Shown: in pieces, positions 3,165 through 18,274 of the stretch | Layout of the letters: every line of letters begins with the position of its first letter | Position numbering within the stretch: the first letter of the stretch is position 1 | NCBI GenBank assembly: GCA_016184305.1 | Contig: JACPCX010000126.1 | Coordinates: forward strand, 1 to 20,922 | Source: Candidatus Rokuibacteriota bacterium | Lineage (GTDB): Bacteria; Methylomirabilota; Methylomirabilia; Rokubacteriales; CSP1-6 | DNA length: 20,922 bases | Reading direction: 5' to 3' | The notes under the pieces: generated by a model | Told to the model about the DNA's origin: nothing | Databases searched by the model: none | The model's input: the letters and a program-made list of their open reading frames with translations, nothing else | Position numbers and translations under genes: made by a program

Positions 3165-3295
3165 TCAGAGCCGGCCGAACGCCTCGCCGACCACGGTCCG
3201 GGCGAGCGCGGGGTCCACGGCGTTCGCGCGCTGGCAGGGCACGGTCTCGGCGAGGACGCGCTCCGGGTCTTGCCAGAGGGTACAATCCAGACGGG

Positions 3296-3760
3296 ATGCG
3301 GGACTACCACTACCTCGTCGACGGGGACGGGCACATCTTCCACGACGGGACCGAGATCGTCGATCCCGCGGTGCTGCGGTTCTTCCTGCGCGCCATGCGG
3401 CGAAGCGACGACGGACGGTACCTCGTTGTCTGCCAGGGAGAGCGGAACTGGTTCGCGCCGCACGACACGCCGTTCGTCGTGCAGCGGCTGCGGCTCCACG
3501 AGGAGGCCGGCCGGCCGGACGGCGTGGAGCTCCGGTTCGCCGGCGACTACGGGGAGCCGCTCGATCCGCGGAGCCTCGAGGCCGAAGGCGGGCGCCTGTA
3601 CTGCCGGGTGCGACAGGGCGCCTTCCGCGCCCGTTTCGGCCGCGTCGCGATGCAGCAGCTGGCGCCGCTCCTCTCGGACGACGGCGCGGGGCCGACGCTC
3701 CTCCTCGACGGGCGCCGCCATCCGATCCGGGACGTGAGCTGCCGGGCTACGTCTCCCTGA
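3296..3760 (+). CDS. DUF1285-like hypothetical protein
   Basis: MRDYHYLVDGDGHIFHDGTEI...DTPFVV...LYCRVRQGAFRARFGR pattern. TACAAT at 3281-3286 with no SD suggests a very short leader. Confidence 0.7.
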   Translation: MRDYHYLVDGDGHIFHDGTEIVDPAVLRFFLRAMRRSDDGRYLVVCQGERNWFAPHDTPFVVQRLRLHEEAGRPDGVELRFAGDYGEPLDPRSLEAEGGRLYCRVRQGAFRARFGRVAMQQLAPLLSDDGAGPTLLLDGRRHPIRDVSCRATSP

Positions 3761-3777
3761 CCTGCTGGCGCCGCGGG

Positions 3778-4167
3778 CTACCGCCTCATGCTGATCGATC
3801 GGTCGACCGACAGGGGCACTGCCACGAAGGTCCGCTCGCCGTAAGCGACCAGCGGATAGGTCCACTGTACCGTCACGCGCACGCCGTCGGGCGTCTGGGA
3901 GACGGCGACCCCGTCCCTGGTCAAGCCGGTGCCCGGCCGGCTGGAAGCGGCCAGCAGCGTCGCGCGGACGTTGTTGGCGAACTGCTGGCGGGCCTCCGGA
4001 AGCTGCGCGTCAGCGGCAGCCATTCCCCTGGCGGTTGCGTCGGCGGCGATCCGGTTCACCAGGTCACTGGTCTCGAGGTAGCTGGCGATCGCGAACGCCG
4101 CGGTGTAGCCGAGCGTTCCCAGCAGGATCGTGCCGATCGTCCAGGCGGCCAGGGTGCGGTATCTCAT
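3778..4167 (-). CDS. Hypothetical protein with single N-terminal TM/signal segment (possibly DUF4845/pilus-accessory-like)
   Basis: MRYRTLAAWTIGTILLGTLGYTAAFAIASYLE hydrophobic N-terminus and a beta-rich C-terminus (VRVTVQWTYPLV); 40 nt downstream of the GGDEF gene. Confidence 0.6.
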   Translation of the reverse strand: MRYRTLAAWTIGTILLGTLGYTAAFAIASYLETSDLVNRIAADATARGMAAADAQLPEARQQFANNVRATLLAASSRPGTGLTRDGVAVSQTPDGVRVTVQWTYPLVAYGERTFVAVPLSVDRSISMRR

Positions 4168-4207
4168 CGGGGCCCTTTCACGGTCGATGGGGAGGAGACA
4201 ACGATTC

Positions 4208-5458
4208 TCACGCGTTCTCCCCGCCCACCTCGTGCAGCACGGCATGCTGGGCCGGTCCCACGATGCGGTTCCGCCCTCGCCGCTTGGCCTCGTAGAGGCG
4301 GGCATCGGCGGCCGCCAGCACCAGGTGGATCCGCTGCCCGTCGTCCGGCCAGTTGGCCACGCCGATGCTCAGGGTCACCGGAACGGGTTTCCGCGACCGG
4401 TCTCCTGCCGGCAGGACCCCCGCGTCAGCGACGGCGGCGCGGAGTCGTTCCAGCCTGTGCATCACCAGATCAGCGGTGGTCTCGGGCAGGAGCAGCGCGA
4501 ACTCGTCCCCCCCGAAGCGGGCCACCATGTCGCTGGGCCTGAGCGACTCCAGGAACATCCCCGCGACGGCGCGCAGGACGGCATCCCCGGTCGCGTGACC
4601 GCGCGTGTCGTTGATCTGCTTGAAATTGTCGATGTCGATGAGGGCGATGGCCAGGGGGCGGTAGTTGCGGCGGGCCCGGCTGGCCTCGGCCTCGAGCCGC
4701 TCGTCGAAGGCGCGGCGAGTCGCGGCGCCGGAGAGCACGTCGACGGTGGAGATCTGGCGCAGACTCTGGGCGCGCAGCACGATGAGGGCGCTCACCAGGG
4801 CCGCGCCGGCCAGCAGGATCAGGCGCATGCCCTGGGTGCTCCAGTCGAACATGCCCAGCTTGAACGGCGCGTAACGCCCATCGTTGAGGTTCCAGCGGCC
4901 GGCGGTGTAGACGACGATGGTCCCGTACTGCACGACGGCCAACAGGCCGGTGAGGGCGCAGGCCTGGGGGTTGTACCGGAGGCTGGCGCAGCCGATGGCG
5001 AGGAAGTAGAGCTCGAAGAGCGTCCCGCTATTGACCGCGGTGTGGGGCTGGTCCAGCAGGAGGAAAGCCGCCAGGCCGCAGCTGACGAGGGTGACGTCCG
5101 CGGCGCTGCTGCCGAAGCCTTCGAGCCACGGCTGAGGGCGCCGCGACGCGAGAATGTAGACGAGGAAGGCGATGACGAGGGCCACGATGTTGAGGGGCAG
5201 CGTGACCCGCCGGATTTCCGTGGTGGTGCCCGGCAGGATCTGGATCGTGAGCAGGATGCACAGGAGGAGGATCCGGACCCGGGCCACCGCCAGCTCGCCG
5301 GTTGCGCCCAGATCCACGAAGATCGGATCGCGGCCGTTCGCGAGGCTCTCGCGGATCCGAGCGACGAGACCTGGTCGGATGGGGATCGAGCCGTAAGCGG
5401 CGGCTGCGCCCACGGAGGGCCCACCCTGGTTCCGCCCTTTGATCAGCCCGCTCAGCAC
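4208..5458 (-). CDS. Membrane-bound diguanylate cyclase (GGDEF)
   Basis: Several TM helices, then DIDNFKQINDTRGHATGD, I-site RPSD and ARFGGDEF. Start placed at GTG 5458 behind AGGAGG. Confidence 0.93.
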   Translation of the reverse strand: MLSGLIKGRNQGGPSVGAAAAYGSIPIRPGLVARIRESLANGRDPIFVDLGATGELAVARVRILLLCILLTIQILPGTTTEIRRVTLPLNIVALVIAFLVYILASRRPQPWLEGFGSSAADVTLVSCGLAAFLLLDQPHTAVNSGTLFELYFLAIGCASLRYNPQACALTGLLAVVQYGTIVVYTAGRWNLNDGRYAPFKLGMFDWSTQGMRLILLAGAALVSALIVLRAQSLRQISTVDVLSGAATRRAFDERLEAEASRARRNYRPLAIALIDIDNFKQINDTRGHATGDAVLRAVAGMFLESLRPSDMVARFGGDEFALLLPETTADLVMHRLERLRAAVADAGVLPAGDRSRKPVPVTLSIGVANWPDDGQRIHLVLAAADARLYEAKRRGRNRIVGPAQHAVLHEVGGENA

Positions 5459-5667: not shown

Positions 5668-8031
5668 TCAGCGGGGCCGGGTCTGCAGATATTGCCTGAT
5701 GGCCCGGTACTGGCTCTTGCCGTCGAGACCGGCCTCGGCCAGCACCATGTCGCCATGGCCGCTGCCCAGGAAGTGCCCGTGCTGGAAGGGGTGGAGCGTC
5801 ATGGACCGGCCGAGGTCGGAGCAGATCCAGCGGAACATGGTGGGCAACGTGAAGCCGGTGATGCCCATCGCCTCGAGGGCGCGCTCCTCGGGGAAGATGC
5901 GGCGCTGCGTCGCCTGGGGCAGGAGGTCGAATAGCTCGGCGCTCGCGACGTAGTAGACCCAGGGGTCGAGCCCGTCCTTCTCCAGCAGGGGCAGCGCCTC
6001 CTGCACGAACGCGTAGGTGACCGCGCTCTCCTGCAGCACCACGGTCCCGCCGCCCTGCCCACGGGGCCGGCGCAGAAGGTAGACGCCGGTGACCGCGTCT
6101 GCCGCGGACGCCAGGCCGAGCCGCGCCCGATCGAGGACGGTCTCGCTGGGGCGGGTGACGAAGGGCGCGATGATCGCGGGGCGCCGGGCCAGCGAGGCGG
6201 CGAGCAGCGGCCAGATCTCCTGCGGATCCCACGGCGTCAGCGTGATGGCCGTGCCCCGCGGGAAATTCTCCTGCAGGAGCTGGAGCGGCTGGGGATCGGC
6301 GTGGGTCGGCCCGTCCTCGCCTGTCTTGAGCCCGGCATGGGCGCAGACCACGATCATCGGCCGGTACGGATCTCCGGTGAGCGCCTGCCGTGCCTGGGCG
6401 CCGATGGCGTGCAGCCGCGCGGCGATGTGGCTGAGCGGCGCCATGAACGCGCCGTAGGACGAGCCCACGCCGATATGGTGGCCGAGGGTGGACAGCCCGG
6501 CAAGGATCCCCGACATCCCGTCCTCGCAGATGCCGCCGATGGACAGGATCCGCGCCCCGGGATTCGTCCTGGCATTCCAGTAGCCCTCCGCGAAGCCCGC
6601 TCCCACGGCGCTCACGCTCGTGGAGCTGAGGAGATCGGCGGCGGCGGCGAGGACCGCTCCCCCGGAGGCGCGGTTGTAGTGCCCCAGCGCGCGTCCAAGC
6701 TCGCCACGGAGGGTCGTGACCGTGCCGGGGGTGAGCGCGAGCGCGGAGGGCGTGGCCGGCCCCTTCGCCGCCAGCTCGTAGACGCCTTCCACCCGGGGCG
6801 CACCGGCCCGGGGGCGGCGGCTGCGCGTGTCGAGTCGGTCGCGCGCCGCGGCGAGCCGGGCCGCAAGCGCCTCCACCATGGCGCCGCTCTGCTCGAGGAC
6901 CTTGCGCACGACCGTGAGCGACTCCCAGAAGCATTCCTCGATGACGGCCGCTCCGTCGGGGGCCGACAGGCAGCGCCGCGTGCCGGCCTCGCAACTCGGC
7001 ACCATCAGATCCGCTCTCCCCGTCAGCTCTGCCACCGCCCGGCAGAAACCGTCGGAGCACATCTTGTGGCCGGCGCCATGCGAGGCCTTGCCCTCGACCC
7101 CGTACTGCCAGCCCTTCACCGTGCGGTAGACGACGGCCGTCGGCTGGCCGTTGTCCAGCGCGAGCGCGGCCTGCTGGGCGGCGGCGACCTGGCGGACGTC
7201 CTTCCCGTCGGGCACGACGACAACGTTCCAGTCGTGGAGGTGGAACAGCTCCGCCGGGCTCCATTGCACGTAGTCGCCTGGCTGACCGTCCTCGCGGCAG
7301 ACGCGGTTGGAGTCGATGGAGGCCTGGTTCCAGTCGAGGTGGACGATCGCGTTGTCGAGCGAGGCGGTGCCGGCCGCCGCCAGGGCCTCGGCCACGCGCC
7401 CGGGCGTGAGCCCGCCCTCGCCCTCGACGATGTGGACGCGCGGGGCATCGGCGCCGAAGTAGTCCCGCGCGCCCAAGGCGAGCCCCAGCGAGGAGGCGAC
7501 GCCCACGCCGGAGGCCCCGGTGGAGAGGCGGACGAAGGGGGTGGCCGGGGTCGGGTGGCCGTCGAGGGCCTTGGCTCCGAACGCCTCCACGAGCGGCGTC
7601 CTGACAATGGGGTTGCGGCGGAAACCCAGGAGATCCTCGAGGCGGAGCCGCTGCTTCACGTCCTTCGGCAGCAGGTCGGGAGCGGCGAGCCGGGCGATCT
7701 CGTCGCGGAGCGCCCACATCGCGTAGAGCCCCATGGCCTTGTGCCCGGCCGCGTAGGAGATGATGTCGGCGTCCTCCCGGTCGGGCTGCGCCAGGTCGTA
7801 GTCGAGCGCGTCGAAGAGGAGCGCGGCCACGATGCGTCCGGAGGAGATCGAGCCGCCCGGGTGGCCCGAGGTGGGCACGTAGTTGTAGAGGAGGGCGCAG
7901 AGTGAGCGGTAGACGAGGTCGAGGGTCTCCAGGTGGCCCACGTCTTCGGCGGTCAGCGGCGCGCGCCCGCTCGCAAGGAGATCTCCGACATCCGTGACGG
8001 TGGCGCGCCTCGACCCGAGCTGGAGTGCCAT
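5668..8031 (-). CDS. Transketolase-family ThDP enzyme (single chain, atypical)
   Basis: Motifs SGHPGGSIS, AGHK, LDGHP, STGASGVG, GEG...DWN, GICEDGM and HAGLKTGEDGPTH; SD GGAGG before ATG 8031. Confidence 0.88.
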   Translation of the reverse strand: MALQLGSRRATVTDVGDLLASGRAPLTAEDVGHLETLDLVYRSLCALLYNYVPTSGHPGGSISSGRIVAALLFDALDYDLAQPDREDADIISYAAGHKAMGLYAMWALRDEIARLAAPDLLPKDVKQRLRLEDLLGFRRNPIVRTPLVEAFGAKALDGHPTPATPFVRLSTGASGVGVASSLGLALGARDYFGADAPRVHIVEGEGGLTPGRVAEALAAAGTASLDNAIVHLDWNQASIDSNRVCREDGQPGDYVQWSPAELFHLHDWNVVVVPDGKDVRQVAAAQQAALALDNGQPTAVVYRTVKGWQYGVEGKASHGAGHKMCSDGFCRAVAELTGRADLMVPSCEAGTRRCLSAPDGAAVIEECFWESLTVVRKVLEQSGAMVEALAARLAAARDRLDTRSRRPRAGAPRVEGVYELAAKGPATPSALALTPGTVTTLRGELGRALGHYNRASGGAVLAAAADLLSSTSVSAVGAGFAEGYWNARTNPGARILSIGGICEDGMSGILAGLSTLGHHIGVGSSYGAFMAPLSHIAARLHAIGAQARQALTGDPYRPMIVVCAHAGLKTGEDGPTHADPQPLQLLQENFPRGTAITLTPWDPQEIWPLLAASLARRPAIIAPFVTRPSETVLDRARLGLASAADAVTGVYLLRRPRGQGGGTVVLQESAVTYAFVQEALPLLEKDGLDPWVYYVASAELFDLLPQATQRRIFPEERALEAMGITGFTLPTMFRWICSDLGRSMTLHPFQHGHFLGSGHGDMVLAEAGLDGKSQYRAIRQYLQTRPR

Positions 8032-8205
8032 GGCCTGTCCTCCCTCTCTCGATCTTCCGTCCAAGCGCGCTCCTGCCACAAGCGCCGATTCGTTCCCGGC
8101 CTTAGCCGTACGGACTAGAAACCCCCTCCAGACGACTCATGCGCCAGTCAGGAGGGAAGGCGTAGGGTGGCAGCAGACGCACATCAATAATCCTTGCGAG
8201 GGGGC

Positions 8206-8907
8206 ATGTCGCGAATGAGCTACGAGACCCCGGGATGCGCCTATTGCCCGCCGACCGTGCGGGCCTGTCGACAGGGTGAGTCGGAGAGCCGCGGCCCCGG
8301 CTTCTGCCCCACGAAGGTGGACCAAGACGGGATCGAGCGGGCCTGGGGGCTGTACGAGGACCCCGAGCTCAGGAAGATCGCCCATGCCTCGGCCCTCGTG
8401 GAGAGCGAGGGGTACTGCAAGTGGACGCGGGTCGAGGAGATCTGCCACTTCGCCAGGAAGATGGGCTTCACGAAGATCGGCATCGCGACCTGCATCAGCA
8501 TGGTGGACCTCGCGAAGGTGCTCTCGGGCATCCTCGAGAGCCACGGCTTCCAGGTTGCCTCCGTGGCGTGCAAGAACGGCGGCGTGCCCAAGGAGCGCAT
8601 CGGCCTGAGTGACGAGGAGAAGATCCGCCCGGGCACCTACGAGCCCATGTGCAACCCCATCTCCCAGGCCGCGCTGCTCAACGACGCCGGCTGCGAGCTG
8701 AACGTCGTGCTCGGCCTCTGCATCGGGCACGACAGCCTCTTCTTCCGCCACTCGAAGGGACTGGCTACGACGCTCGTCGCCAAGGATCGCGTGCTCGCCC
8801 ACAACCCCGTCGGCGCCCTCCAGCTTGCCGACACCTACTTCGCGCGCGTCTGGGGCCCGCTCAAACCCGCCACGCCGCCCACGCTGCCCGCCGAGGGGCG
8901 AACGTAG
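8206..8907 (+). CDS. DUF1847 family Cys-rich putative metal-binding protein
   Basis: CAYC...C...FCP, TRVEEI, KIGIATC, MCNPISQA, GLCIGHDSLF and KDRVLAHNP. Start at 8206 or 8215. Confidence 0.9.
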   Translation: MSRMSYETPGCAYCPPTVRACRQGESESRGPGFCPTKVDQDGIERAWGLYEDPELRKIAHASALVESEGYCKWTRVEEICHFARKMGFTKIGIATCISMVDLAKVLSGILESHGFQVASVACKNGGVPKERIGLSDEEKIRPGTYEPMCNPISQAALLNDAGCELNVVLGLCIGHDSLFFRHSKGLATTLVAKDRVLAHNPVGALQLADTYFARVWGPLKPATPPTLPAEGRT

Positions 8908-8932: not shown

Positions 8933-9556
8933 CTATAGGTCGATCCTCCGCCGGGCCAGCGCGCGCTCCCACTTCCCGGCGTCGTTGTCATCGAACACCA
9001 CGTCGTCGTCCGGCACGGCGGTGACCCAGTCTCCTCGCTCCTGCTCGGCCTCGAGCTGGCCGGGCGCCCATCCCGCATAGCCCAGCACGAACAGCGCTCG
9101 CCGCGGCCCCTGGCCCAGGCCGATGCTGCGGAGGATCTCGGTGCTCGCGGTGAGGGCGAAGCGGGGAGTCACCGCCATGGTTCCGTCGCCCGCGTAGTCG
9201 GCGGTGTGAAGCACGAGGCCGCGTCCCCCTTCGACGGGCCCGCCCCAGTGGATGCGGATGCTCCCGCTGACGCCCGCGCTGTCGAGTCCCAGCCGCCCGA
9301 GGAGATCCGCGAGCGGGGCCTCGCCGATCCGGCGGTTCACCGTGACCCCCATCGCGCCGGTAGCGTCGTGGCGGACGATGGCGATGACGGTACGGGCGAA
9401 GCGCGGATCGCGCATGCCGGGCGCCGCCACGAGGAGCTGACCGGCGAGGCTCCTGTGCCCGGGCTGCGCCAGAGCGACCTGGCCGGGAGCCCCGGGCATC
9501 ACGAGCCCGACGACGAGCACCGCAAGCAGTCCCCCCGCGATCCAGGCCTGCCTCAT
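8933..9556 (-). CDS. YqgE/AlgH (DUF179) family protein with N-terminal signal-peptide-like extension
   Basis: LAGQLLVAAPGMRDPRFARTV, GAMG...NR, WGGPVE, GYAGWAPGQLEAE...W and KWERAL. Confidence 0.9.
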   Translation of the reverse strand: MRQAWIAGGLLAVLVVGLVMPGAPGQVALAQPGHRSLAGQLLVAAPGMRDPRFARTVIAIVRHDATGAMGVTVNRRIGEAPLADLLGRLGLDSAGVSGSIRIHWGGPVEGGRGLVLHTADYAGDGTMAVTPRFALTASTEILRSIGLGQGPRRALFVLGYAGWAPGQLEAEQERGDWVTAVPDDDVVFDDNDAGKWERALARRRIDL

Positions 9557-9683
9557 AGGGGCAGGGTACCGCATACCCGGGCGTCAGCGCGCCGCCGCGG
9601 CGACTGCCTTCTTGTGGTCGAGCGATTCGTGCACCTGTCCCTGGTACTGCCGTTCGGTCACCTGCGGTGGCATGGGGGGAGCG

Positions 9684-10121
9684 TCAGCGGGGAGGCGCCG
9701 GCTCCGACCCGCCGGACGCGCCTGCGGCCTGTGGCTGGCGGGTGAGCAGCCCGGCGATGGATTCGAGCAGCCGCTCGCGCCGGGTGCCCGGGCCGAAGAT
9801 GGCGGCGGCGCCGAGCCGCGAGAGCTCGACCTTCATGTCGGGGGTGACCACGCCGCCGACCACCAGCGGCACGCGTCCCAGCCCCACGCCCTCGAGCGTC
9901 TGGCGCATGCGCCGGGTGGCGTAGACGGGGTCGCTGCTGAGACAGCTCACGCCCACCAGCTCGGCGTCTTCCTGGAGCGCGATCTGGGCCACGCGCTCCG
10001 GGGTGTTGTAGAGGCCCGCGTAGACCACTTCGTGTCCGCCCTCGCGCAGCCACCGGGCCACCGCCGTCACCCCGAGGTCGTGCGCGTCGCTGCCGAGCTT
10101 CGCCAGGACGATGCGCGCCAT
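9684..10121 (-). CDS. Cobalamin-binding small subunit of an acyl-CoA mutase
   Basis: AKLGSDAHDLG (DxHxxG base-off/His-on motif), GVSCLS, VVGG and FGPGT; 2 nt after the large-subunit stop. Confidence 0.93.
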   Translation of the reverse strand: MARIVLAKLGSDAHDLGVTAVARWLREGGHEVVYAGLYNTPERVAQIALQEDAELVGVSCLSSDPVYATRRMRQTLEGVGLGRVPLVVGGVVTPDMKVELSRLGAAAIFGPGTRRERLLESIAGLLTRQPQAAGASGGSEPAPPR

Positions 10122-10123
10122 GG

Positions 10124-11746
10124 CTAGCCCTCGACCGTGTGGCCGATGGCCTCGCCGAAGGTGCGGCACACCTCGCCGATGGTGGCGCCCGCCTCGACGG
10201 CCGCGAGGACGGGGGGCATCACGTTCTCGCCGGCCGCCGTCGCGCGGCGGAGCGCGTCGAGGGTCGGCTGGAGCGCCGGCGCCTGGCGGCGCGCGCGGTA
10301 CTCGCGGACGTAGCGCAGGCGCGCCTCTGGCATCTCCTGCTCATAGGCGAAGAACTCCATCTTCGGCTCCTCTGCTTCCTCGTCGCGGAAGCAGTTGACT
10401 CCCACGACCGGTTGATCGCCCGACTCCATCCGATCCATGTGCTCGACGCGCGCCTCCCGGATCTGTTGCTCCACCCAGCCGGCCTTGAACACGGAGACGA
10501 AGCCGCCCCGCGCCCGGATGTCGTCCATCATCGTGAGGATGTCGGCCTCGAGCCGGCCGGTCAGCCACTCCACGAGATGGGAGCCGCCCAGGGGGTCGGC
10601 GCTCTTGACCACGTTGGTCTCGTACCCGATCACCTGCTGGGTCCGGATCGAGAGGCGATGGGAGGCCTCCGAGGGGAGCGCGTACGCCTCGTCGTAGGAG
10701 GTCGTGTGGATGGACTGGCTGCCGCCCAGCACCGCCGCCAGCGTCTGGATGGCCGCGCGGACGATGTTGTTCAGCGGCTCCTGGGCCGTGAGCGGCAAGG
10801 CCGCGGTCTGGATGGCCGTGCGGAACCAGCACGAGCGGTCGTCCTTCGCGCCCAGGCGCTCCCGCATGAGACGGGCCCAGATCCGCCGCATGGCACGGAG
10901 CTTGGCCACCTCCTCGAAGAGGTCCATGTGGGCGGCGGTGAAGAAGGCCATCCGCTGGGCGAAGGCGTCCGCGTCGAGGCCACGCGCGATCAGCCGCTCC
11001 GCGTACTCGAGCGCGAGCGAGAGCGCGAAGGCCGCCTCCTGGATCGCGTTGATGCCTGTCTCGCGCATGTTGTAGGCGTTGACGTTCACGATGTTCCACC
11101 GGCGCATCTCGCGGGTGCAGTACTCCATGACGTCGAGCCCCACGCGCACGCTGAAATCGATGGGGAAGAAGTGCGTGATGGCCTGCTGCGTCGCGCCGGC
11201 GAGCTGCGTCAGGGCGCAGTTCATGATGGTGCCGATCAGGGCGGCCGGCGGGATCCCCCGCCGGCGCGCCACGGCCAGGTACATGGCGAGGAACGGGGCC
11301 GAGGCGGGAGGCTGGACGATGAGCGTGCTCGACACCCTGTCCAGCGGGATGCCGTCGAAGAGCTGTTCCATGTCTTCCAGCGTGGCGATGGAGGTGCCCT
11401 GGCGGCCGACCTCGCCCTCGAACAGCGGATGGTCCGGGTCGAAGCCGAGCTTGGTCGCCATGTCGGTGTCGATGTTGAGCCCGGTGGCGCCCTGGCGCAG
11501 CAGGTAGTGGAGCCGCTCGTTGGACTCCCGCGGCGTCCCGTAGCCGGACTGCTGCCGGCGGGTCCACAGCCGCTGCCGGTACATCTCCGTGTGGATCCCG
11601 CGGGTGAAGGGGTACTCGCCCGGGCGCTCGGCCGCCGCCGAGGGGCGGTGGGCGAGGAACGGCGGCAGCTCGATCCCCGACAGCGTGTTGAAGTCGGCGG
11701 GGCGCTCGCCCTCGAGGTACCGGTCAAACAGCCGATCCGTGCTCAT
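10124..11746 (-). CDS. Adenosylcobalamin-dependent acyl-CoA mutase, large (substrate-binding) subunit; substrate unknown
   Basis: PGEYPFTRGI, EGEVGRQG, FEEVAKLRAMRRIWA, QT..LTAQEPLNNIVR, AAVLGGSQSIHT.SYDEA, RTQQ, DPLGGS and VVGVN. Confidence 0.95.
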   Translation of the reverse strand: MSTDRLFDRYLEGERPADFNTLSGIELPPFLAHRPSAAAERPGEYPFTRGIHTEMYRQRLWTRRQQSGYGTPRESNERLHYLLRQGATGLNIDTDMATKLGFDPDHPLFEGEVGRQGTSIATLEDMEQLFDGIPLDRVSSTLIVQPPASAPFLAMYLAVARRRGIPPAALIGTIMNCALTQLAGATQQAITHFFPIDFSVRVGLDVMEYCTREMRRWNIVNVNAYNMRETGINAIQEAAFALSLALEYAERLIARGLDADAFAQRMAFFTAAHMDLFEEVAKLRAMRRIWARLMRERLGAKDDRSCWFRTAIQTAALPLTAQEPLNNIVRAAIQTLAAVLGGSQSIHTTSYDEAYALPSEASHRLSIRTQQVIGYETNVVKSADPLGGSHLVEWLTGRLEADILTMMDDIRARGGFVSVFKAGWVEQQIREARVEHMDRMESGDQPVVGVNCFRDEEAEEPKMEFFAYEQEMPEARLRYVREYRARRQAPALQPTLDALRRATAAGENVMPPVLAAVEAGATIGEVCRTFGEAIGHTVEG

Positions 11747-12368
11747 GGAAGCCTCCTTGGCCGAGGCCGCGCACCAGGTAGCGCGCGAAGGTCTCGCCGA
11801 TCTCCTTGGGGGTGCGCTCGCCGTCGGGTGAGTACCACCGGGGAATCCAGTTCATCGCGCCCAGCATCGCCAGGACGACCATCTTGGGATCGCAGGGGGC
11901 GAAGGCCTCGCTCGCGACTCCCTCCTCGACGATGCGCCTCAGCCGGCGCTCGTACTCGTCCCGCCGGCTGACGAGGTCGCGGTAGAGCCTGGGGGAGAGC
12001 ATGCCCTCCGTGAGCACGACGCACCCGTTGAGCCGGTCGGTGATGCCCTCGATGAAGTGCCGGAGCGCCACGTAGAGCTTGACGTCGGCCGGATCCGCCA
12101 GCGCCTCCGCCATCTGGACCCCCTCCATCGCGACATCGAGGGCCGTCGAGTGGCACTGGAAGATGATCTCCGCCTTGCCCTTGACGTAGTAGTACAGCGC
12201 CGCCTTGCTCACGCCCAGCTCGCGCGCGATGTCCCCCATCTTGGTGGCCTGATAGCCCTTGCGGTTGAAGCAGCGCGCGGCGCTCTGGAGGATGATCTCG
12301 AGGCGGACATTCCTCACGTGCTGGCGCGCGGCGCCGCGGTCGTTCCATCTCGCCTGCGGTTGACCCAT
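11724..12368 (-). CDS. TetR/AcrR-family regulator (KstR2/PaaR-like C-terminus)
   Basis: HTH FNRKGYQATKMGDIARELGVSKAALYYY and C-terminal GAMNWIPRWYSPDG; overlaps the mutase start by 23 nt. Confidence 0.93.
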   Translation of the reverse strand: MGQPQARWNDRGAARQHVRNVRLEIILQSAARCFNRKGYQATKMGDIARELGVSKAALYYYVKGKAEIIFQCHSTALDVAMEGVQMAEALADPADVKLYVALRHFIEGITDRLNGCVVLTEGMLSPRLYRDLVSRRDEYERRLRRIVEEGVASEAFAPCDPKMVVLAMLGAMNWIPRWYSPDGERTPKEIGETFARYLVRGLGQGGFHEHGSAV

Positions 12369-12380
12369 GGTTCGAATTCT

Positions 12381-12395
12381 CCGACTCTTTAGTCA
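12381..12395. promoter_or_regulatory. Candidate TetR operator, copy 1
   Basis: CCGAC-TCTTT-AGTCA with inner GACT-N4-AGTC palindrome, overlapping the tetR ribosome-binding region. Confidence 0.5.
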
Positions 12396-12500
12396 ATCTC
12401 AGACACTACACTCGGGTCCCCCCATCCAGTAAATGGAGCAATGACATCATTTCTACACCCTGATATGCCTATTGCGGCGGCGCGTTGCCTGGGCGATTCT

Positions 12501-12516
12501 ACCGACCGGTCAGTCA
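12501..12516. promoter_or_regulatory. Candidate TetR operator, copy 2
   Basis: ACCGACCGGTCAGTCA near-palindrome (CCGAC-N5-AGTCA), adjacent to a minus-strand TAGAAT at 12496-12501. Confidence 0.6.
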
Positions 12517-12544
12517 TGATCTTGTGAATGCTGGAGGGGTACCC

Positions 12545-13849
12545 ATGGCGGAGCGCTTCGACTGCGTGGTGATCGGGGCCGGCATCGGCGGCCTGGCGGC
12601 CGCCGCCCGCCTCGCAGCGGCGGGGCTCCGCCCGCTGGTCGTGGAGGAGCGCGATCGCGTCGGGGGACGCTTCTCCTCGGTGGACGTGGAGGGCTTCCGC
12701 GTGAGCACCGGCGCCGTGGCCGTGGAGTGCGGCGGCGTGCTGGAAGAGACATTCCGCGTCGTCGACGCGCCGTTCGAGGTGAGGCGGCCGGAGCCGGCGG
12801 TGGTGTTCCGGATCGGCGGGAAGGACCGGAGCTTCGGCGGCGGGTGGCGGCAGATCTTCGAGATGTTCGTCACGCGCGGGGCGCGGATGCTGGCGGCCAT
12901 CCACGAGGAGGTCGGCCGCTCGGCCGTGGAGGGCGGGCTCTCGCTCAGGCAGTGGCTACTCGGGTACACGGAGCACGCGGTGCTGCACGGCATCTTCCAG
13001 TCGCTGGCCGCGTCCATCTTCGCGGTCAACGCCGACGAGATCCCCGCCCGCACGTTCTTCGAGCACTTCATGGCGCGCGGGGGGTTCAAGCGCTTCGGCT
13101 TCGCCCCGCATGGCTGCCTCGGGCTCGTGGAGCCCCTGGCCCGCGCCATCGAGGCCCGCGGCGGCGCCGTCTGGACCGGGAGCGCGGTGGAGCGGATCCT
13201 CGTGCGCGCCGGCGCGGTGGTGGGGGCCGTCTGCCGGCGGCAGGGCGCCGCGGTGGAGATTCCCGTGTCCGCCATCGTGAGCAACGCGGGCCCGCGGGAG
13301 ACCCTGGCGCTGCTGGACGAGGCGACCGTGCCCCGGGACTATCGCGAGCGGGTCGAGACCCGCGTCCGCCCCGCTGCCAATGTGGCCCTGTACTTCACGA
13401 GCAGCCGGCCCCTCGTGGCGGCCCCCGGGCTCGTGACGTTCGTCGAGGGGCAGCGGGTCTGCAACCTCGCCAACCTCGGCCAGCTCTGCCCCGAGCTGAC
13501 GCCGGGCGGCGAGCCGCTCTACGTCGCCTTCGGCGTGCCCCGGCCTTCGCTGGGCTCCTTCGATGCCGACGAGACCATCCGGCTGATGAAGGAGGATCTC
13601 GCGTCACAGGTGCCCGGGTTCACGGAGTCGGGGCGGGTGCTGACCGTGAGCGTGATGCGGGGGAGCTGGCCGGCACAGCGTGCCTGCGCCGGGCACGATC
13701 TGCCTCAGCGCACGCCCATCCGGGGGCTCTGGCATGTCGGCGACGGCGTGAAGCCGGCGGGGTGGGGCGGAGCCTCGGCCTGCGCCGAGAGCGCGAGGCT
13801 GGCCGTCCTGGGTCTGCTCGGGGGCCATAGGGTCTCGTCCGCTCGATGA
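12545..13849 (+). CDS. FAD-dependent oxidoreductase, phytoene desaturase-like (COG1233-type)
   Basis: DCVVIGAGIGG, E...RVGGR, STGA, IVSNAGP and TPIRGLWHVGDG...G...CAESA; SD GGAGG before ATG 12545. Confidence 0.9.
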   Translation: MAERFDCVVIGAGIGGLAAAARLAAAGLRPLVVEERDRVGGRFSSVDVEGFRVSTGAVAVECGGVLEETFRVVDAPFEVRRPEPAVVFRIGGKDRSFGGGWRQIFEMFVTRGARMLAAIHEEVGRSAVEGGLSLRQWLLGYTEHAVLHGIFQSLAASIFAVNADEIPARTFFEHFMARGGFKRFGFAPHGCLGLVEPLARAIEARGGAVWTGSAVERILVRAGAVVGAVCRRQGAAVEIPVSAIVSNAGPRETLALLDEATVPRDYRERVETRVRPAANVALYFTSSRPLVAAPGLVTFVEGQRVCNLANLGQLCPELTPGGEPLYVAFGVPRPSLGSFDADETIRLMKEDLASQVPGFTESGRVLTVSVMRGSWPAQRACAGHDLPQRTPIRGLWHVGDGVKPAGWGGASACAESARLAVLGLLGGHRVSSAR

Positions 13850-14991
13850 AGGCACAGCGCTATCCTCAACATTCGCCGTCGGGGAAGTTTCCAGATGGAC
13901 CGGCTCCGCGGTATTGATGCCCACGAACCCGGGGCAAAGGAGCACCTCGTGGCATTGGCATCGATCCCGCTGAGTTCCACGGTGACCGGAGTCCGCGCTG
14001 GCTGCTCCCGAGTCACCGGGCAGATCGAGTCCGCCGCCAGGGTGCCGGAGATCACGACCGCCTCGACGCCGGCGCCGGGGAAAACCCCCGCCCCGGCGAG
14101 GACGAGCCCCTCCACGGGCGACTTGATCGGCGGCTGCCACTGCCCGACTCCCGCGCCGTAGATCGCGCCGCCCGTGGTCCACGCGTAGCGGGCGAAGGTC
14201 GCGGGGCTGCCCTCCTGGCGATACACGATGTGGCCGCGCAGCCCGGGCAGCGCCTGCTCGGCCTCGGCGATGAGCGCATCTCCGAGGCTCCGCTTTTTCG
14301 CAGCGTAGCCGGGGGTCTTGCGCTTCCACGCCCCGCCGGCGATGGGCGGCATGAGCGTGATCAGGCTCACGCTGCTGTGACCCCGGGGGGCCAGCGACGG
14401 ATCGACCTTCGAGGGGATGGCGATGCCGAGCCGCCGCCCACCCGCGGCCAGCATGGTGATGGGCTCGACGTCGGGGACATAGTCGACGCCCAGGAACACG
14501 ACGAAGGCCGACGTCGATGGCCGGATATCGTCCACGCGGCGGGTGAAGTCCGGCGGCAGATGCTCACGGCCCACCAGGTCGAGGAAGGTGCGGCGGGCAT
14601 CCGCGTTGGAGACGATGGCCGCGGCCCGGTCCAGCCGGCCGTCGCCGGAGACGACGCCCGCCGCGCGGCCCTTGTCGACCACGATCCGCTGCACCGCCGT
14701 CCTGAGGCGGATCTCGCCCCCATGCGATCGGATGACGCCCGCGAGGGCGTCGGCCAGCGCCTGGGAGCCGCCGGCCGGATAGTAGCCCCCATCGAAGTAG
14801 TAGCCGAAGATCGGCGCCATGGCGAAGACCGTGAGTGTACGGGGATCGTCGCTCAGATAGCCGGTGAGCACCGAGAGGAAGTCCTTCAGGCGCGGGTCGA
14901 GGAAGTACCGGTCCAGCAATGCGCCGAAGGGGACGTGCATCCAGCGGAACGCGTGCGGGTGAAGCGCCGGATAGGCCAGCATGGCGTCCAC
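13705..14991 (-). pseudogene. N-terminally truncated phytoene-desaturase-family oxidoreductase
   Basis: Has GYYPAGGSQALADAL, VSNAD, SKVDPSLAP, SPATFARY..GGAIYG and GLVLAGAGVFPGAGV, but no GxGxxG FAD-binding start in frame upstream. Family-like sequence ends near 14000; the frame reads on and overlaps the opposite gene by 145 nt. Confidence 0.8.
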
Positions 14992-15020
14992 GGTAGCCTC
15001 GCTGGTGAGGAGGAGACCCG

Positions 15021-15665
15021 ATGAGGAAGCGACCGGGGGGCCCCCGATCCGCGCGCCGGCGCGGGAGCTACCACCACGGCAATCTGCGCCGGGCGCTGCT
15101 CGACGCCGCGCTCGAGCTCGTCGAGACCCAGGGCGCCGAGGCGCTGACGCTCAGGGCTGCGGCGCGACGGGCCGGCGTCTCCCCGGCCGCCCCGTACCGC
15201 CACTTCGCCGACAAGCGGACCCTGCTCGCGGCGGTGGCCGAGGAGGGATTCCGGGCGCTGACGGAGGCCATGCGACAGGCCACGGCCGCGCATGGCGACG
15301 AGCCGCTCGGCCCCTTCCGCGCGCTCGGGCTCAGCTACATCAGGTTCGCGGTGAGCCACCCTGCCCACTTCCGCGTGATGTTCGGGCGCGAGATCGCTGA
15401 CAAGTCCGCGCACCCCGACCTCCTCGACGCGGCCGCCGTGACCTTCGGCCTGCTCGTCGAGGGCCTCGCCGGCTGCCAGCGGGCCGGGCTCGCGCGCGAG
15501 GGCGACCCCGCGGAGCTGGCGATCTCGGCCTGGGCCGCCGTGCACGGGCTGTCAGCCCTGCTGCTCGACGGTCAGCTGGGGCCCTGGGACCAGGAGCGGG
15601 TGGAGCAGCTCGCCCACGGCGTCACCGCCAGCCTCTTCCTGGGCCTCGGTCCCCAGCGCGCGTGA
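15021..15665 (+). CDS. TetR/AcrR-family regulator (WHG-type C-terminal domain)
   Basis: YHHGNLRRALL, RRAGVSPAAPYRHFADK and AWAAVHG; SD GAGGAG. Confidence 0.93.
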   Translation: MRKRPGGPRSARRRGSYHHGNLRRALLDAALELVETQGAEALTLRAAARRAGVSPAAPYRHFADKRTLLAAVAEEGFRALTEAMRQATAAHGDEPLGPFRALGLSYIRFAVSHPAHFRVMFGREIADKSAHPDLLDAAAVTFGLLVEGLAGCQRAGLAREGDPAELAISAWAAVHGLSALLLDGQLGPWDQERVEQLAHGVTASLFLGLGPQRA

Positions 15666-15799
15666 GCCTGCGCGGCCGGCATGCTACACTCGCCGCCACC
15701 AAGAACCAGGGGCTCAACCCCAACAGCATCGTCCTGCTGCCGGCGCGGCCGTAGCGGCGGCCGGAGTCACGCAGTGAACAGCAACCGAGGAGGACGGCG

Positions 15800-16639
15800 A
15801 TGAAAGCGCACAAGGTCACGGGCGGTGGCGGCATCACGCTCCATGTCGAGGAGACGGGGAGCCGGAGGGGACGGCCAATCCTGTTCATCCACGGCTTCTC
15901 CCAGTGCCGGCTGGCGTGGGAAAAGCAGATGGAGTCGGACCTCGCCCGGGACTTCCGCCTGGTGGCGATGGACATCCGCGGGCACGGGCTCTCCGACAAG
16001 CCCCGCGACGCGTACGGCGACTCGAAGCTCTGGGCCGACGACGTGCGCGCGGTCATCGAGGCCCTGCGCCTCGATCGCCCGATCCTGAGCGGCTGGTCCT
16101 ACGGCGGCCTCATCATCTGCGATTATGTCCGGGTCTACGGCGAGGATCGCATCGGCGGGATCAACCTGGTGGGCGCAGTCACCAAGATCGGCACGGACCC
16201 GGCCTTCGCCCTCATCGCGCCTGCCTTCCTCGGCATCGCCCCCGGCTTCTTCTCCAACACGGTCGAGGAGAGCGTGAAGAGCCTCGAGGCCTTCATGCGC
16301 CTGTGCGTGCACAAGCCCCCGTCGCCCCGCGACTACTACTTCTTCCTCGGCTACAACGCCATCGTGCCCCCGCACGTGCGGGAGGGGCTCTTCTCGCGGA
16401 AGATCGAGAACGACGACCTGCTGCCGCGGCTCTCCACACCGGTCCTGATCACGCATGGCCAGAAGGACGGGATCGTCCGGCCCGCCGCGGCCCGGCAGCA
16501 CGCGGCGGCCATCTCCCAGGCCAAGCTCTCGCTCTACCCCAACGTGGCCCACGCCCCGTTCTGGGAGGCCGCCCCGCGCTTCAACCGTGAGCTGAGGGCC
16601 TTCGCCAAATCGGTGGCGCGGGACGGGAAGAAGCGGTAG
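15800..16639 (+). CDS. Alpha/beta hydrolase (non-haem haloperoxidase/arylesterase-like)
   Basis: FIHGF, DIRGHGLSDKP, nucleophile GWSYGG, HGQKD and HAPFWE; SD GAGGAGG. Confidence 0.93.
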   Translation: MKAHKVTGGGGITLHVEETGSRRGRPILFIHGFSQCRLAWEKQMESDLARDFRLVAMDIRGHGLSDKPRDAYGDSKLWADDVRAVIEALRLDRPILSGWSYGGLIICDYVRVYGEDRIGGINLVGAVTKIGTDPAFALIAPAFLGIAPGFFSNTVEESVKSLEAFMRLCVHKPPSPRDYYFFLGYNAIVPPHVREGLFSRKIENDDLLPRLSTPVLITHGQKDGIVRPAAARQHAAAISQAKLSLYPNVAHAPFWEAAPRFNRELRAFAKSVARDGKKR

Positions 16640-16648
16640 GGCGAGGGC

Positions 16649-17599
16649 TCAGCCCCAGACGCCAGGGATCTTGGTCGCGCAGGAGGGGCAGGCGCCCCGG
16701 GTCTCGGTCAGGCGATCGCGCAGGATCCTGTATCCCTCGCGCTCGATGAGGAGCGTCTTGCAGGAGGGGCAGCACGTGTTCTCGAAGCGCCCGACCCGGC
16801 CGGGGAGGTTGCCGGCGTAGACGTAGCGGAGGCCCTCGCCGAGCCCGATCTCGGCGGCGCGGAGCACCGTCCTCGCGGGCGTGTCCTCGAGGTCCGTCAT
16901 CTTGTAGTCGCGGTGGAAGGCCGTGACGTGCCACGGGATGTCGGGGGAGACGGACACGAGGAAGCGCGCGAGCGCGCTGAGCTCCTCGTCGGAGTCGTTG
17001 TGCCCCGGCACCACCAGCGTGACGACCTCCGCCCAGAAGCCCCGGGCATGGAGCATGCGGATCGTGTCAAGCACCGTCTGCAGCACGCCGCCCAGCTTCC
17101 GGTACCGCCGGTCGTCGAAGCCCTTGAGGTCCACCTTGTAGAGGTCCACCCAGGGGCGCAGGAAGTCGAGCACCTCGGACGTCGCGTTCCCGTTCGACAC
17201 GTAGGAGCACGTGAGCCCCCGCGCCTTCCCTTCCTTGAAGATCTCCACCGCCCACTCGCTCGTGATGAGGGGCTCGTTGTAGGTGGAGGTGAGGACCCGC
17301 GCCCGGTGGCGGAGGGCCATGTCCACGATCTCGCGCGGGGTCACCTCCTGTGGCGGCGTGCCCGCGACGGGCTTCTTCTCGATGGGGTCGAGCTGCAGGC
17401 CGCCCACGTAGCCGGATGGCACCATCAGGCGGCCGTCCGCGTTGAAGCGCACCCGGCAGATGCCCCGCTGCCCCGGAGGGATCAGGCAGCGGTGGCCGCA
17501 GGCGTGGCAGCGCAACCGGGCCCCGGGGAGGCGCTCGTAGAGCTCGCCCTCCCGGGCGTGGCGCGAGAGGATCTGCTCGAGAGTTGCCGCGTGGGCCAT
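16649..17599 (-). CDS. amrS: AmmeMemoRadiSam radical SAM enzyme lacking the CxxxCxxC segment (probably inactive)
   Basis: CHACGHRC...GICRVR, DPIEKKP, TYNEP, VSNG, VDLK, PWHVTAFH and YVYAGN, plus C-terminal CPSC pairs; no CX3CX2C anywhere. Confidence 0.88.
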   Translation of the reverse strand: MAHAATLEQILSRHAREGELYERLPGARLRCHACGHRCLIPPGQRGICRVRFNADGRLMVPSGYVGGLQLDPIEKKPVAGTPPQEVTPREIVDMALRHRARVLTSTYNEPLITSEWAVEIFKEGKARGLTCSYVSNGNATSEVLDFLRPWVDLYKVDLKGFDDRRYRKLGGVLQTVLDTIRMLHARGFWAEVVTLVVPGHNDSDEELSALARFLVSVSPDIPWHVTAFHRDYKMTDLEDTPARTVLRAAEIGLGEGLRYVYAGNLPGRVGRFENTCCPSCKTLLIEREGYRILRDRLTETRGACPSCATKIPGVWG

Positions 17600-17631
17600 T
17601 CTCCCTCTACTTTACTCCCGGGGGGAGGGTG

Positions 17632-18069
17632 ATGGATGCGGGTCCCGTGAGGCGCCCGGCGGTGGCGGGATGGTTCTACCCGGACCGTCCAGAGGCGGTG
17701 GAGGCGGATCTCGCGCGCCTGATCGCGAACGTCGAGCCCAAGCGGACACCGAGGGCGGTCGTGGTGCCCCATGCCGGGTGGAGCTACTCGGGCCGCGTGG
17801 CCGGCGAGGTCTACGGGCGGGTGACGGTGCCGGCCCTCGTCGTGGTCCTCGGCCCGAATCATACGGGGCTGGGTCCCGCGGGCTCGATCATGTGCCGGGG
17901 GCGCTGGGCGCTGCCGGGCGGCGACCTCGCCATCGCCGAGCTGCTCGCCCGCTCGATCCTGGGCGCGGCGTCGGTGCTGGAGGAAGACGCCGCGGCGCAC
18001 GCCCGGGAGCACGCCATCGAGGTCCAGCTCCCCTTCCTCCGCCGCCTCCGTCCTGGCCTCCGTTTCGTG
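17632..18069 (+). pseudogene. amrB: AmmeMemoRadiSam protein B (Memo-like), 3'-truncated
   Basis: VRRPAVAGWFYP, PHAGWSYSG, LGPNHTG and HAREHAIEVQLPFL. Similarity stops at LRFV (18069); the SSD.SH/CG half is absent. Confidence 0.88.
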
Positions 18070-18070
18070 G

Positions 18071-18274
18071 GTCGGCGACGGGATCGTGGACGAGCGCACT
18101 GGACGCCTCGACCTCTACGATCGCCTCCCCAACCGGACGGGGTACGGGCGGATCACACCCGGCGGCCCGGTGGACCTCTACGGGCTCGACGGGAGAAGGG
18201 CCTTGCCCTCCACACTGCGGTGCTCCGAGAGCACGAATGCCGGTTGCCCTACTCCAGCCGCACGGAGTCGGTGA
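18071..18274 (+). pseudogene. Fragment of an unrelated small beta-repeat protein
   Basis: VGDGIVDERTGRLDLYDRLPNRTGYGRITPGGPVDLYGLDGRR, with GACCTCTACG repeated at 18110-18119 and 18173-18182; no SD. Confidence 0.4.

Follow-up and report, generated by a model that had tools for sequence, protein, structure and literature searches.

To our knowledge, only a few substrate specificities have been described for acyl-CoA mutases, namely those of methylmalonyl-CoA mutase (MCM), isobutyryl-CoA mutase (ICM/IcmF), ethylmalonyl-CoA mutase (ECM), 2-hydroxyisobutyryl-CoA mutase (HCM/RCM), and pivalyl-CoA mutase (PCM). Each specificity added to this list has opened a pathway, as with fuel-oxygenate breakdown and the ethylmalonyl-CoA pathway, or has given a biocatalyst for branched building blocks. 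The residues that specify the substrate are Tyr89, Arg207, and His244 in MCM, where Tyr89 and Arg207 bind the substrate carboxylate, and Ile90 and Asp117 in HcmA. Here we describe a mutase locus within 20,922 nucleotides of DNA from a Candidatus Rokuibacteriota bacterium (contig JACPCX010000126.1 of assembly GCA_016184305.1). This stretch, called the window below, is the entire 20.9-kb contig (C53) of a 3.2-Mb metagenome-assembled genome (MAG) that is 89% complete. We consider it reasonably likely that the window carries an autoregulated tetR-mutL-mutS operon for a split adenosylcobalamin-dependent acyl-CoA mutase of an uncharacterized specificity clade, under the control of a PfmR-type TetR repressor.

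The gene content of the window was established by Pfam and NCBIfam scans of its 44 open reading frames (ORFs), and the coordinates of the main features are collected in Table 1. The region is 96% identical to that of Candidatus Rokubacteria GWA2_70_23 (L009) and 91% identical to that of GWC2_70_16 (L014). The operon genes are tightly packed. Specifically, tetR overlaps the large-subunit gene by 23 nt, with the tetR TGA (11726-11724) lying 20 nt past the mutase ATG (11746), and an AAGGAGG element stands upstream of that ATG. The large-subunit TAG, the letters cc, and the small-subunit ATG occur in succession, which leaves a gap of 2 nt. Across a 176-nt spacer, a gene for a flavoprotein (FAD1) is transcribed divergently from an ATG at 12545. 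A preliminary description, made from the sequence letters alone, had reported the overlap, the short gap, and the divergent spacing, and each of these holds. It had also stated that genes for the chaperone MeaB, an epimerase, or a carboxylase are lacking from the window, and indeed none was matched in the Pfam scan of the 44 ORFs; the single MeaB gene of the genome lies on another contig (C76). Remnants of ligase, PrpD, TRAP, and MeaB genes were sought in the window and its close relatives, and only matches with E-values of 0.037 or worse were obtained. A scan of positions 9500-14100 for sigma-70 promoters and terminators returned 0 sites. An aquifer metatranscriptome (run X20) yielded no more than a single 284-nt contig within the mutase gene (11248-11531), the remaining pieces being 18-22 nt long.

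Substrate pocket, phylogeny, and partner genes of the mutase

Both mutase subunits fall within established protein families. The large subunit covers positions 2-511 of the 512 in the PF01642 profile (cut-off 22.1 bits; score in Table 1), reaches 513.7 bits against TIGR00641 (cut-off 303.8), and retains conserved CoA-binding motifs. The small subunit scores 73 bits against PF02310 and 100 bits against TIGR00640 (cut-off 57), and it carries the DxHxxG (GSDAHDLG) motif of His-on B12 binding as well as a VVGG motif. The closest solved structure to the large subunit is HcmA (4r3u, 2.8e-122).

Pocket positions were mapped by HMMER alignments to HcmA (4r3u) and human MCM, and the window protein was also aligned with 59 relatives, among them paralogues from its own genome that are of canonical MCM, ICM, and HCM type. 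These alignments place Gln66 of a WTRRQQSGYG motif at the position of Tyr89 in MCM and Ile90 in HcmA, Asn226 of AYNMRE at that of His244, and an Ala, beside a 4-residue insert, at that of Arg207. Asp93, within NIDTD, occupies the position of Asp117 in HcmA, and the HCM-type Asp is thus retained. In addition, GTIMNCALTQ stands for GT(I/V)QNDILKE, with Met175-Asn-Cys in place of Gln-Asn-Asp, and TAIQTAALP stands for FHTQTAG. Gln65, Gln66, Ser67, Asp93, Met175, Asn176, Cys177, and Asn226, among other residues, are invariant in seven orthologues from three phyla (Rokubacteria, Desulfobacteraceae, and Syntrophorhabdaceae); among the pocket replacements, only the Ala at the Arg207 position varies. 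The signatures of the clade are WTRRQQSG[YF]G, NxD[TFAV]D, GTIMNC, the 4-residue insert, and AYN[MVI]RE. As judged from these alignments, there is a clade-specific replacement of substrate-specifying residues.

The enzyme is distinct from each of the described types to which it was compared. It differs from MCM by Gln66 and Ala at the Tyr89 and Arg207 positions and by a score of 424 bits against NF006944 (cut-off 876), and from ICM and IcmF by RRQQSG instead of RMF and a score of 246.7 bits against NF045497 (cut-off 1500). Although Asp93 is kept as in HcmA, Gln66 replaces Ile90 and Asn226 replaces the His. Moreover, the large subunit falls under every NCBIfam equivalog cut-off. Canonical motifs are found instead in paralogues encoded by the same genome, where 6 of the 13 PF01642 matches are full-length: an MCM type (L002; RQY, ARGTYI), an ICM type (L001; RMF), and an HCM type (L003; RQI, VDFD, GYH). 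Thirteen mutase-domain matches in a 3.2-Mb genome (contigs C9, C185, C153, C168, and C195, plus fragments; loci L001-L008) represent an unusually large set of acyl-CoA mutases.

Loci of the clade were collected by a scan with clade-specific peptide patterns. The resulting 51 loci, 54-96% identical and found in MAGs only, come from Rokubacteria, Alphaproteobacteria, Desulfobacterota, Syntrophorhabdia, Nitrospinota, Dehalococcoidia, and Bacillota. Many members are from anaerobes, and the clade is widespread in MAGs from groundwater, soil, and sediment. In a FastTree tree of 97 rows with SH-like supports, from which duplicate contigs and ORFs outside 500-640 aa were excluded, the 44 rows with the RRQQSG motif are monophyletic (support 100) and stand apart from the MCM, ICM, and HCM types. 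The sister of the clade in this tree is a protein from a Methylomirabilia MAG (L061). At least 120 protein clusters at 58% identity or more are present in a large protein database, the source-given names being all generic among the matches listed, and literature searches did not find a paper describing this mutase clade. These results support the earlier suggestion that the locus is a candidate undescribed module.

A second odd mutase clade branches next and is sister to the superclade of the window protein. It includes a paralogue from the same genome on contig C195 (L005) as well as L016, L017, L019, L020, and L018 663-2141, and its motifs are WTRREV, NDP[ILV]H, YDLRE (with Asp for His244), and QSLHCCSYD. 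Like the clade of the window protein, this second clade and the L061 protein stand apart from the MCM, ICM, and HCM types in the tree. Three distinct mutase pairs are arranged in tandem in L018. Separately, a 646-aa database protein (P0005, 75% identity) joins TetR_N to a mutase domain, which probably reflects a gene call running on through the overlap of tetR with the mutase gene.

Neighboring genes were counted by tblastn over the 51 clade loci, many of which lie on short contigs. The small subunit was found at 44 loci and TetR at 26, followed by a PaaK-family ligase (17), an acyl-CoA synthetase (11), DctP (10), DctM (7), MmgE/PrpD (7), and MeaB (3). Elsewhere, then, the mutase is most often accompanied by ligases (PaaK-family or acyl-CoA), TRAP transporters, and MmgE/PrpD proteins, and not by the flavoprotein. 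With 339 bits, the clade-linked ligase remains below the PaaK equivalog cut-off of 646, and it is closer to PaaK (2y27, 2.8e-80) than to the 2-hydroxyisobutyric acid (2-HIBA)-CoA ligase (6hdw, 2e-47). The partnership with this type of ligase may point to a bulky acid, for example an aryl acid. PaaK-like genes of the window's own genome are unlinked to the mutase, with the best on contig C123. No clue to the ligand came from the PDB names of the TRAP binding proteins.

One possibility is that the mutase has a known specificity (2-hydroxyisobutyryl-, isobutyryl-, pivalyl-, ethylmalonyl-, or methylmalonyl-CoA mutase) and that its residue changes reflect neutral drift. The status of HcmA as the best solved relative, the retained HCM-type Asp, and the partnership with a PaaK-family ligase, as for HCL, would all fit. 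However, we judge this explanation to be decidedly unlikely, given that canonical paralogues of the HCM, ICM, and MCM types are already present in the genome, that the replacements are invariant across phyla, that the clade branches apart from those types, that the large subunit scores below every NCBIfam equivalog cut-off, and that the linked ligase is closer to PaaK than to HCL.

The repressor and its predicted operator

PfmR is a TetR repressor of acyl-CoA and phenylacetate-related genes. The repressor encoded in the window (TetR1) scores 53.8 bits against PF00440 (the TetR_N helix-turn-helix) and 99.4 bits against PF17932 (TetR_C_24). Its best solved relatives are 3dcf (5e-27) and 3vpr (3.8e-26 over residues 25-205, which is almost full length), and the latter is identified as PfmR of Thermus thermophilus in PMC10636190. 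By domain content and by similarity alike, TetR1 is a PfmR-type TetR, and it comes with a matching operator-like box. The preliminary assignment of this repressor to the TetRs of acyl-CoA pathways is thereby strengthened.

PMC7022988 gives TACCGACCGNTNGGTN as the PfmR consensus predicted by Agari et al., and the validated PfmR sites that it lists include CCTACCGACCGGTCGG, with a dissociation constant (KD) of 0.3 nM. The predicted site at 12500-12515 fits 12 of the 13 specified positions of TACCGACCGNTNGGTN. No other place in the window matches an idealized palindrome at three or fewer mismatches, and at least one such match was present in 17 of 100 whole-window shuffles. The REPSA core consensus likewise has one occurrence in the 20.9 kb, which is this same site. 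Its distance upstream is 30-45 nt from the FAD1 ATG and 132-147 nt from that of tetR. Shared operator-like sites had been proposed for this spacer, and what stands of that proposal is one clear site, not several.

Palindromes matching at least 10 of 12 specified positions were also sought within 1.1 kb upstream of the mutase in the 43 evaluable clade loci. Such a palindrome is present in 18 of them, across phyla, and its density upstream is 10-fold that elsewhere (19 matches in 45 kb versus 19 in 459 kb). In Desulfobacterota it is usually located 15-70 nt ahead of tetR. From these matches, the box is a predicted conserved operator of a PfmR-type TetR. Because just 4 of 75 FAD1-family loci carry a PfmR-type box ahead of the flavoprotein gene, the box belongs to the mutase-linked TetR lineage. 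When the window's own genome was searched with the idealized box at two or fewer mismatches, two places were found, in the window and on contig C126, and no further regulon members emerged; a reversed control pattern gave 3 matches per strand. The C126 copy (G000:C126:30546-30561; L202, L204) has 1 mismatch. It lies where the gene for an unrelated TetR_C_13 regulator begins, and a gene for an ECF sigma factor comes next.

The divergent flavoprotein and variation around the locus

FAD1 had been described as a COG1233-type FAD enzyme. Its place in the superfamily stands, with a full-length PF01593 match of 59.8 bits (cut-off 19.8), whereas assignment to the CrtI/COG1233 family does not, as TIGR02734 (crtI_fam) gives 62.1 bits against a cut-off of 238.1 and matches residues 28-93 only. 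The closest solved relatives, 3ka7 (5.7e-38) and 3nrn, are both uncharacterized. FAD1 is single-copy in the genome, its ratio of nonsynonymous to synonymous substitution rates (dN/dS) is 0.20-0.24, and in the Atlas no specific names were found for it, only generic ones.

A linkage test over the 51 clade loci (tblastn over at least 50% of the FAD1 query, within 7 kb of the mutase) recovered FAD1 at two of them, in one Rokubacteria and one alphaproteobacterial MAG, and an N-terminal FAD1 fragment lies at a contig end beside the mutase in a second Rokubacteria MAG. FAD1 is divergent from the mutase operon in three Rokubacteria MAGs, with the GWC2_70_16 gene split across two contigs. In the Methylomirabilia MAG (L061), the start of a 78% identical FAD1 overlaps the end of the sister-clade small-subunit gene by 4 nt, and the 205-aa ORF that follows FAD1 there shows no similarity to the L009 gene that follows the small subunit. 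In the alphaproteobacterial MAG (L065), a 50% identical FAD1 is situated between two clade mutase pairs, and one more alphaproteobacterial MAG has FAD1 and the mutase on separate short contigs. FAD1 thus stands beside this mutase type in three lineages, in differing gene orders. Conversely, among 80 FAD1-family loci kept from 179 matches in a scan for FAD1 relatives, only 3 have a mutase within 7 kb. The preliminary description had named a lack of conserved linkage in other genomes as a refutation of its reading. The mutase-flavoprotein linkage does recur, but it is not general, and a conserved linkage is not supported.

FAD1 relatives are found mostly in aerobes, for example Bradyrhizobium, Variovorax, and Pseudonocardia. 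Their neighbors among 77 FAD1-family loci include ABC_tran (56), TetR_C_24 (49), enoyl-CoA hydratase (42), long acyl-CoA synthetase (41), acyl-CoA dehydrogenase (39), LIV-type permeases (35-36) and binding protein (35), family III CoA-transferase (26), and 3-hydroxyacyl-CoA dehydrogenase (19), and annotated plasmid loci agree with this beta-oxidation-type context. Because such neighbors are common and linkage to the mutase is rare, FAD1 would be an enzyme of CoA-thioester catabolism that was recruited to the mutase in a few lineages. Homologues that are 41-43% identical to FAD1 are encoded on plasmids of Rhodococcus opacus PD630 (L194) and Variovorax sp. SRS16 (plasmid 3, L195), in clusters with genes for a CoA ligase, ring-hydroxylating dioxygenase subunits, an OB-fold protein, a thiolase, a hydratase, an acyl-CoA dehydrogenase, and a TetR. 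This content is reminiscent of arylalkanoate (ibuprofen-type) pathways, and the resemblance of the Rhodococcus cluster to ipf, drawn from gene content and from published passages on ipfDE, is a lead only.

The preliminary description had envisaged an O2-independent route in which redox chemistry by the flavoprotein, at a C=C or allylic site of an isoprenoid, is coupled to radical rearrangement of a quaternary carbon by the mutase, acting on a terpenoid- or steroid-like compound, with CtmAB as an analogy for the flavoprotein. The spacer and repressor box shared by FAD1 and the mutase operon, the recurrence of FAD1 beside this mutase type in L061 and L065, and the many clade members from anaerobes are compatible with such a route, and the FAD1 homologues of Variovorax SRS16, which lie among thiolase, hydratase, and NTF2-like genes, could serve cyclic acids. 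We nevertheless find it very unlikely. No isoprenoid or steroid pathway gene was seen in the window or in the surveyed clade loci, FAD1 scores under the CrtI cut-off and is closest to 3ka7 and 3nrn, and it accompanies the clade at so few loci. Furthermore, its family resides mostly in aerobes, among beta-oxidation genes and LIV-type ABC transporters, and the mutase is usually partnered by PaaK-family ligases and TRAP transporters. Thus, neither the proposed substrate class nor the CtmAB analogy gains support.

Alternatively, FAD1 could be an unrelated neighbor with its own function and regulation, such that TetR1 controls its own operon only. This is unlikely in our view, although it deserves serious weight: FAD1 is missing from nearly all clade loci, a TetR_C_24 neighbor of its own is far more frequent in its family than the PfmR-type box, and the region is rearranging. 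On the other side, the only box in the spacer is placed 30 nt ahead of the FAD1 ATG, the L061 FAD1 is translationally coupled to the sister mutase small subunit through the 4-nt overlap, and in L065 the gene is flanked by clade mutase pairs. Judging from the position of the box and from the three arrangements in which FAD1 lies next to this mutase type, we favor the interpretation that FAD1 is probably co-repressed through this single site.

Strain-level differences are evident on both sides of the operon and FAD1. Compared to L009 (1401-2597), the window is without 1198 nt, which hold the FAD2 promoter region together with ~160 codons from the 5' end of the gene (junction at 14993/14994). In L009, FAD2 is full-length (504 aa) and divergent from TetR2. 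FAD2 is more CrtI-like than FAD1 and is convergent with it. A contig from run X1 crosses the deleted junction without differences, and contigs from runs X8 and X5, of two other studies, have the undeleted form. The FAD2 remnant is probably a neighbor outside the module. Between the small-subunit gene and algH, L014 has an intact gene (3181-4599) for a 472-aa protein related to the MbdO/BzdO subunit of class I benzoyl-CoA reductase, which matches 9g87 (MbdO) at 7e-74 and 3o3m (2-hydroxyisocaproyl-CoA dehydratase) at 5e-39. This gene is an internally deleted remnant of 194 aa in L009 (8069-8653) and is absent from the window (9627/9629). In L014, a lone subunit of this family thus stands beside the mutase.

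The strain-specific deletions nearby, which affect FAD2, the MbdO-like gene, and a hydrolase gene in L009, could be taken to mean that the whole locus is a functionless decaying relic. We regard this as extremely unlikely. None of the reading frames is disrupted, the motifs for B12 and CoA binding are conserved, and the stretch is found in metagenomes from 11 studies. In addition, comparison with L014 gives dN/dS values of 0.16 (large subunit), 0.29 (small subunit), and 0.26 (tetR), and comparison with L061 gives 0.20 for FAD1. The operon genes are under purifying selection.

Several other genes in the surroundings are recorded here for completeness. The alpha/beta-hydrolase gene is intact in the window (15800-16639), and L009 (616-693) is without ~660 nt of it, as compared over 15700-16438. 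An AmmeMemoRadiSam pair occupies 16649-18831, where the genes for a radical SAM enzyme (TIGR04337, 227 bits) and for a Memo-like protein diverge; the family match of the latter extends over the first ~160 of 415 residues only. The product of an 898-aa ORF on the minus strand (18178-20874) resembles the anti-phage-associated DUF499 family weakly (83 bits versus a cut-off of 1200). Adjoining algH are genes for an 803-aa transketolase-like TPP protein (5668-8079, minus strand) and a DUF1847 protein (8194-8907, plus strand). Both are kept in the two close Rokubacteria relatives.

Table 1. Features of the mutase locus and its flanks, with positions numbered from the first nucleotide of the window
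Feature	Position	Strand	Basis
Mutase small (B12-binding) subunit, 145 aa	9684-10121	-	PF02310, TIGR00640, DxHxxG
Mutase large (substrate-binding) subunit, 540 aa, "QQ-N" clade	10124-11746	-	PF01642, 560 bits
tetR (TetR1), 214 aa, PfmR-like repressor, first gene of the operon	11724-12368	-	TetR_N and TetR_C_24
Divergent tetR/FAD1 spacer, 176 nt	12369-12544		Read from sequence
PfmR-type operator-like box, TACCGACCGGTCAGTC	12500-12515		Palindrome match at 14 of 16 positions
FAD1, 434-aa FAD-dependent oxidoreductase, amine-oxidase/phytoene-desaturase superfamily, short form	12545-13849	+	PF01593 and NAD_binding_8
FAD2 remnant, 5'-truncated CrtI-like flavoprotein	13705-14991	-	Covers only PF01593 positions 144-442
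TetR2	15021-15665		

Proposed function and relation to known systems

We propose that the locus probably represents a variant, with a new specificity, of the kind of ligase-plus-mutase module that HCL/HcmAB exemplifies. The repressor would bind the single palindromic box in the spacer, and a CoA thioester of the pathway would release it, thereby derepressing the mutase operon. With the box placed 30 nt ahead of the FAD1 start codon, the divergent gene would be derepressed as well. The mutase would then perform a 1,2-shift of the thioester carbon in an acyl-CoA that is predicted to be non-carboxylated, because there is no Arg at the carboxylate site. From the invariance of the HCM-type Asp, this substrate probably bears a hydroxyl or another polar group. 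It probably also exceeds 2-hydroxyisobutyryl-CoA in size or polarity, given the substitution of Gln, Ser, Thr, Cys, and Asn for Tyr/Ile, Ala, Phe, Asp, and His. Rearrangement of a branched or tertiary carbon, as for any acyl-CoA mutase, is plausible. A PaaK-family ligase would activate the acid, as in most relatives, but from an unlinked gene here (for example, that on contig C123), and the single MeaB would load the cofactor. The mutase would thus be the second step of a ligase-mutase route like that of HCL/HcmAB, and in Rokubacteria FAD1 may oxidize or reduce a neighboring intermediate of the CoA pathway.

A number of points weigh against this proposal. The pocket assignments depend on alignment to residues with roles described for MCM and HCM, and loss of His244 could lower activity instead of changing specificity. 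The 20.9-kb contig is devoid of ligase, transporter, and chaperone genes, and FAD1 is missing from other clade loci, with its relatives mostly in aerobes that lack the mutase. With regard to regulation, the distance between the box and the start of tetR is 132 nt, versus 15-70 nt in Desulfobacterota, the sigma-70 scan places no consensus promoter near it, and the genome-wide count of boxes is not above that of the reversed control pattern. Finally, the locus shows strain-level decay, with FAD2 truncated and the downstream MbdO-like gene lost.

Because the enzyme belongs to an unstudied branch and has an altered substrate pocket, it probably handles a compound that no known mutase does. We can also speculate, at long odds, that the clade catalyzes a novel B12-dependent rearrangement of an alpha-branched, bulky, and probably hydroxylated acyl-CoA to a linear 3-substituted acyl-CoA for beta-oxidation, with the linked PaaK-family ligase making the substrate and Rokubacteria having recruited the flavoprotein to a PfmR-type regulon. 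Candidate substrates under this speculation are aryl- or alkyl-substituted tertiary 2-hydroxyacyl-CoA and 2-arylpropionyl-CoA. If it were true, mostly anaerobic bacteria would possess a ligase-mutase route for acids with tertiary or quaternary carbons. The clade offers handles for finding the substrate, namely the conserved operator and repressor, the dedicated ligase, and the TRAP binding protein present in many genomes. Given handles on the binding protein, the ligase, and the repressor, ligand screens could converge on the substrate.

Among known systems, FAD1 compares best to the archaeal FAD oxidoreductases 3ka7 (Methanosarcina) and 3nrn (PF1083), which are without known function. It shares with 3ka7 the N-terminal GxGxxG and xGGR dinucleotide fold and a length of ~430 aa. 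In contrast, CrtI (4dgk) matches the first 70 residues of FAD1 only (2e-8), and CtmAB, compared by description, is presumably a more distant relative. MCM (Propionibacterium shermanii and human; 1req, 2xij) and IcmAB/IcmF resemble the window mutase in fold, family, N-terminal CoA-binding motifs, and DxHxxG. However, the window mutase has neither the Tyr89/Arg207 pair of MCM nor the Phe/Gln pair of ICM, and it falls short of both equivalog cut-offs.

The repressor resembles PfmR (TTHB023 of T. thermophilus HB8) in its almost full-length match and in heading its own operon, and the operator TACCGACCGGTC(A/G)G is near-identical to validated PfmR sites. There are two boxes at PfmR's own promoter and one in the window, and the PfmR regulon as listed in PMC7022988 comprises acyl-CoA dehydrogenases, a ligase, and a thiolase, with no mutase in that list. 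The phenylsuccinyl-CoA/benzylmalonyl-CoA mutase IaaGH, from the anaerobic indoleacetate pathway of Aromatoleum aromaticum, is similar in that a mutase, a PaaK-type ligase, and an uptake binding protein occur together, according to the account in PMC8360864. Compared by description, IaaGH acts on a substrate that retains a carboxylate and should need the Arg that is missing in the window mutase. Moreover, iaa-type hydantoinase, CoA-transferase, and dehydrogenase genes were not seen among the clade-locus neighbors.

The HcmAB/HCL/MeaH system of Aquincola tertiaricarbonis (4r3u, 6hdw) provides the closest parallel. It has split subunits, an Asp at the Asp117 position, and the best solved relative of the window mutase, and its ligase gene stands beside the mutase genes (hcl-hcmAB), as does the PaaK-family ligase gene in most relatives. 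The two differ in that the clade has Gln for Ile90, Asn for His, MNCALTQ for QNDILKE, and the 4-residue insert, and only rarely a linked chaperone (3 of 51 loci). The regulator is a TetR in the clade, whereas the hcl-hcmAB-meaH cluster is reported with a GntR regulator (PMC7176365). The clade also forms a separate branch of the tree, and the HCM-type paralogue is encoded elsewhere in the same genome.

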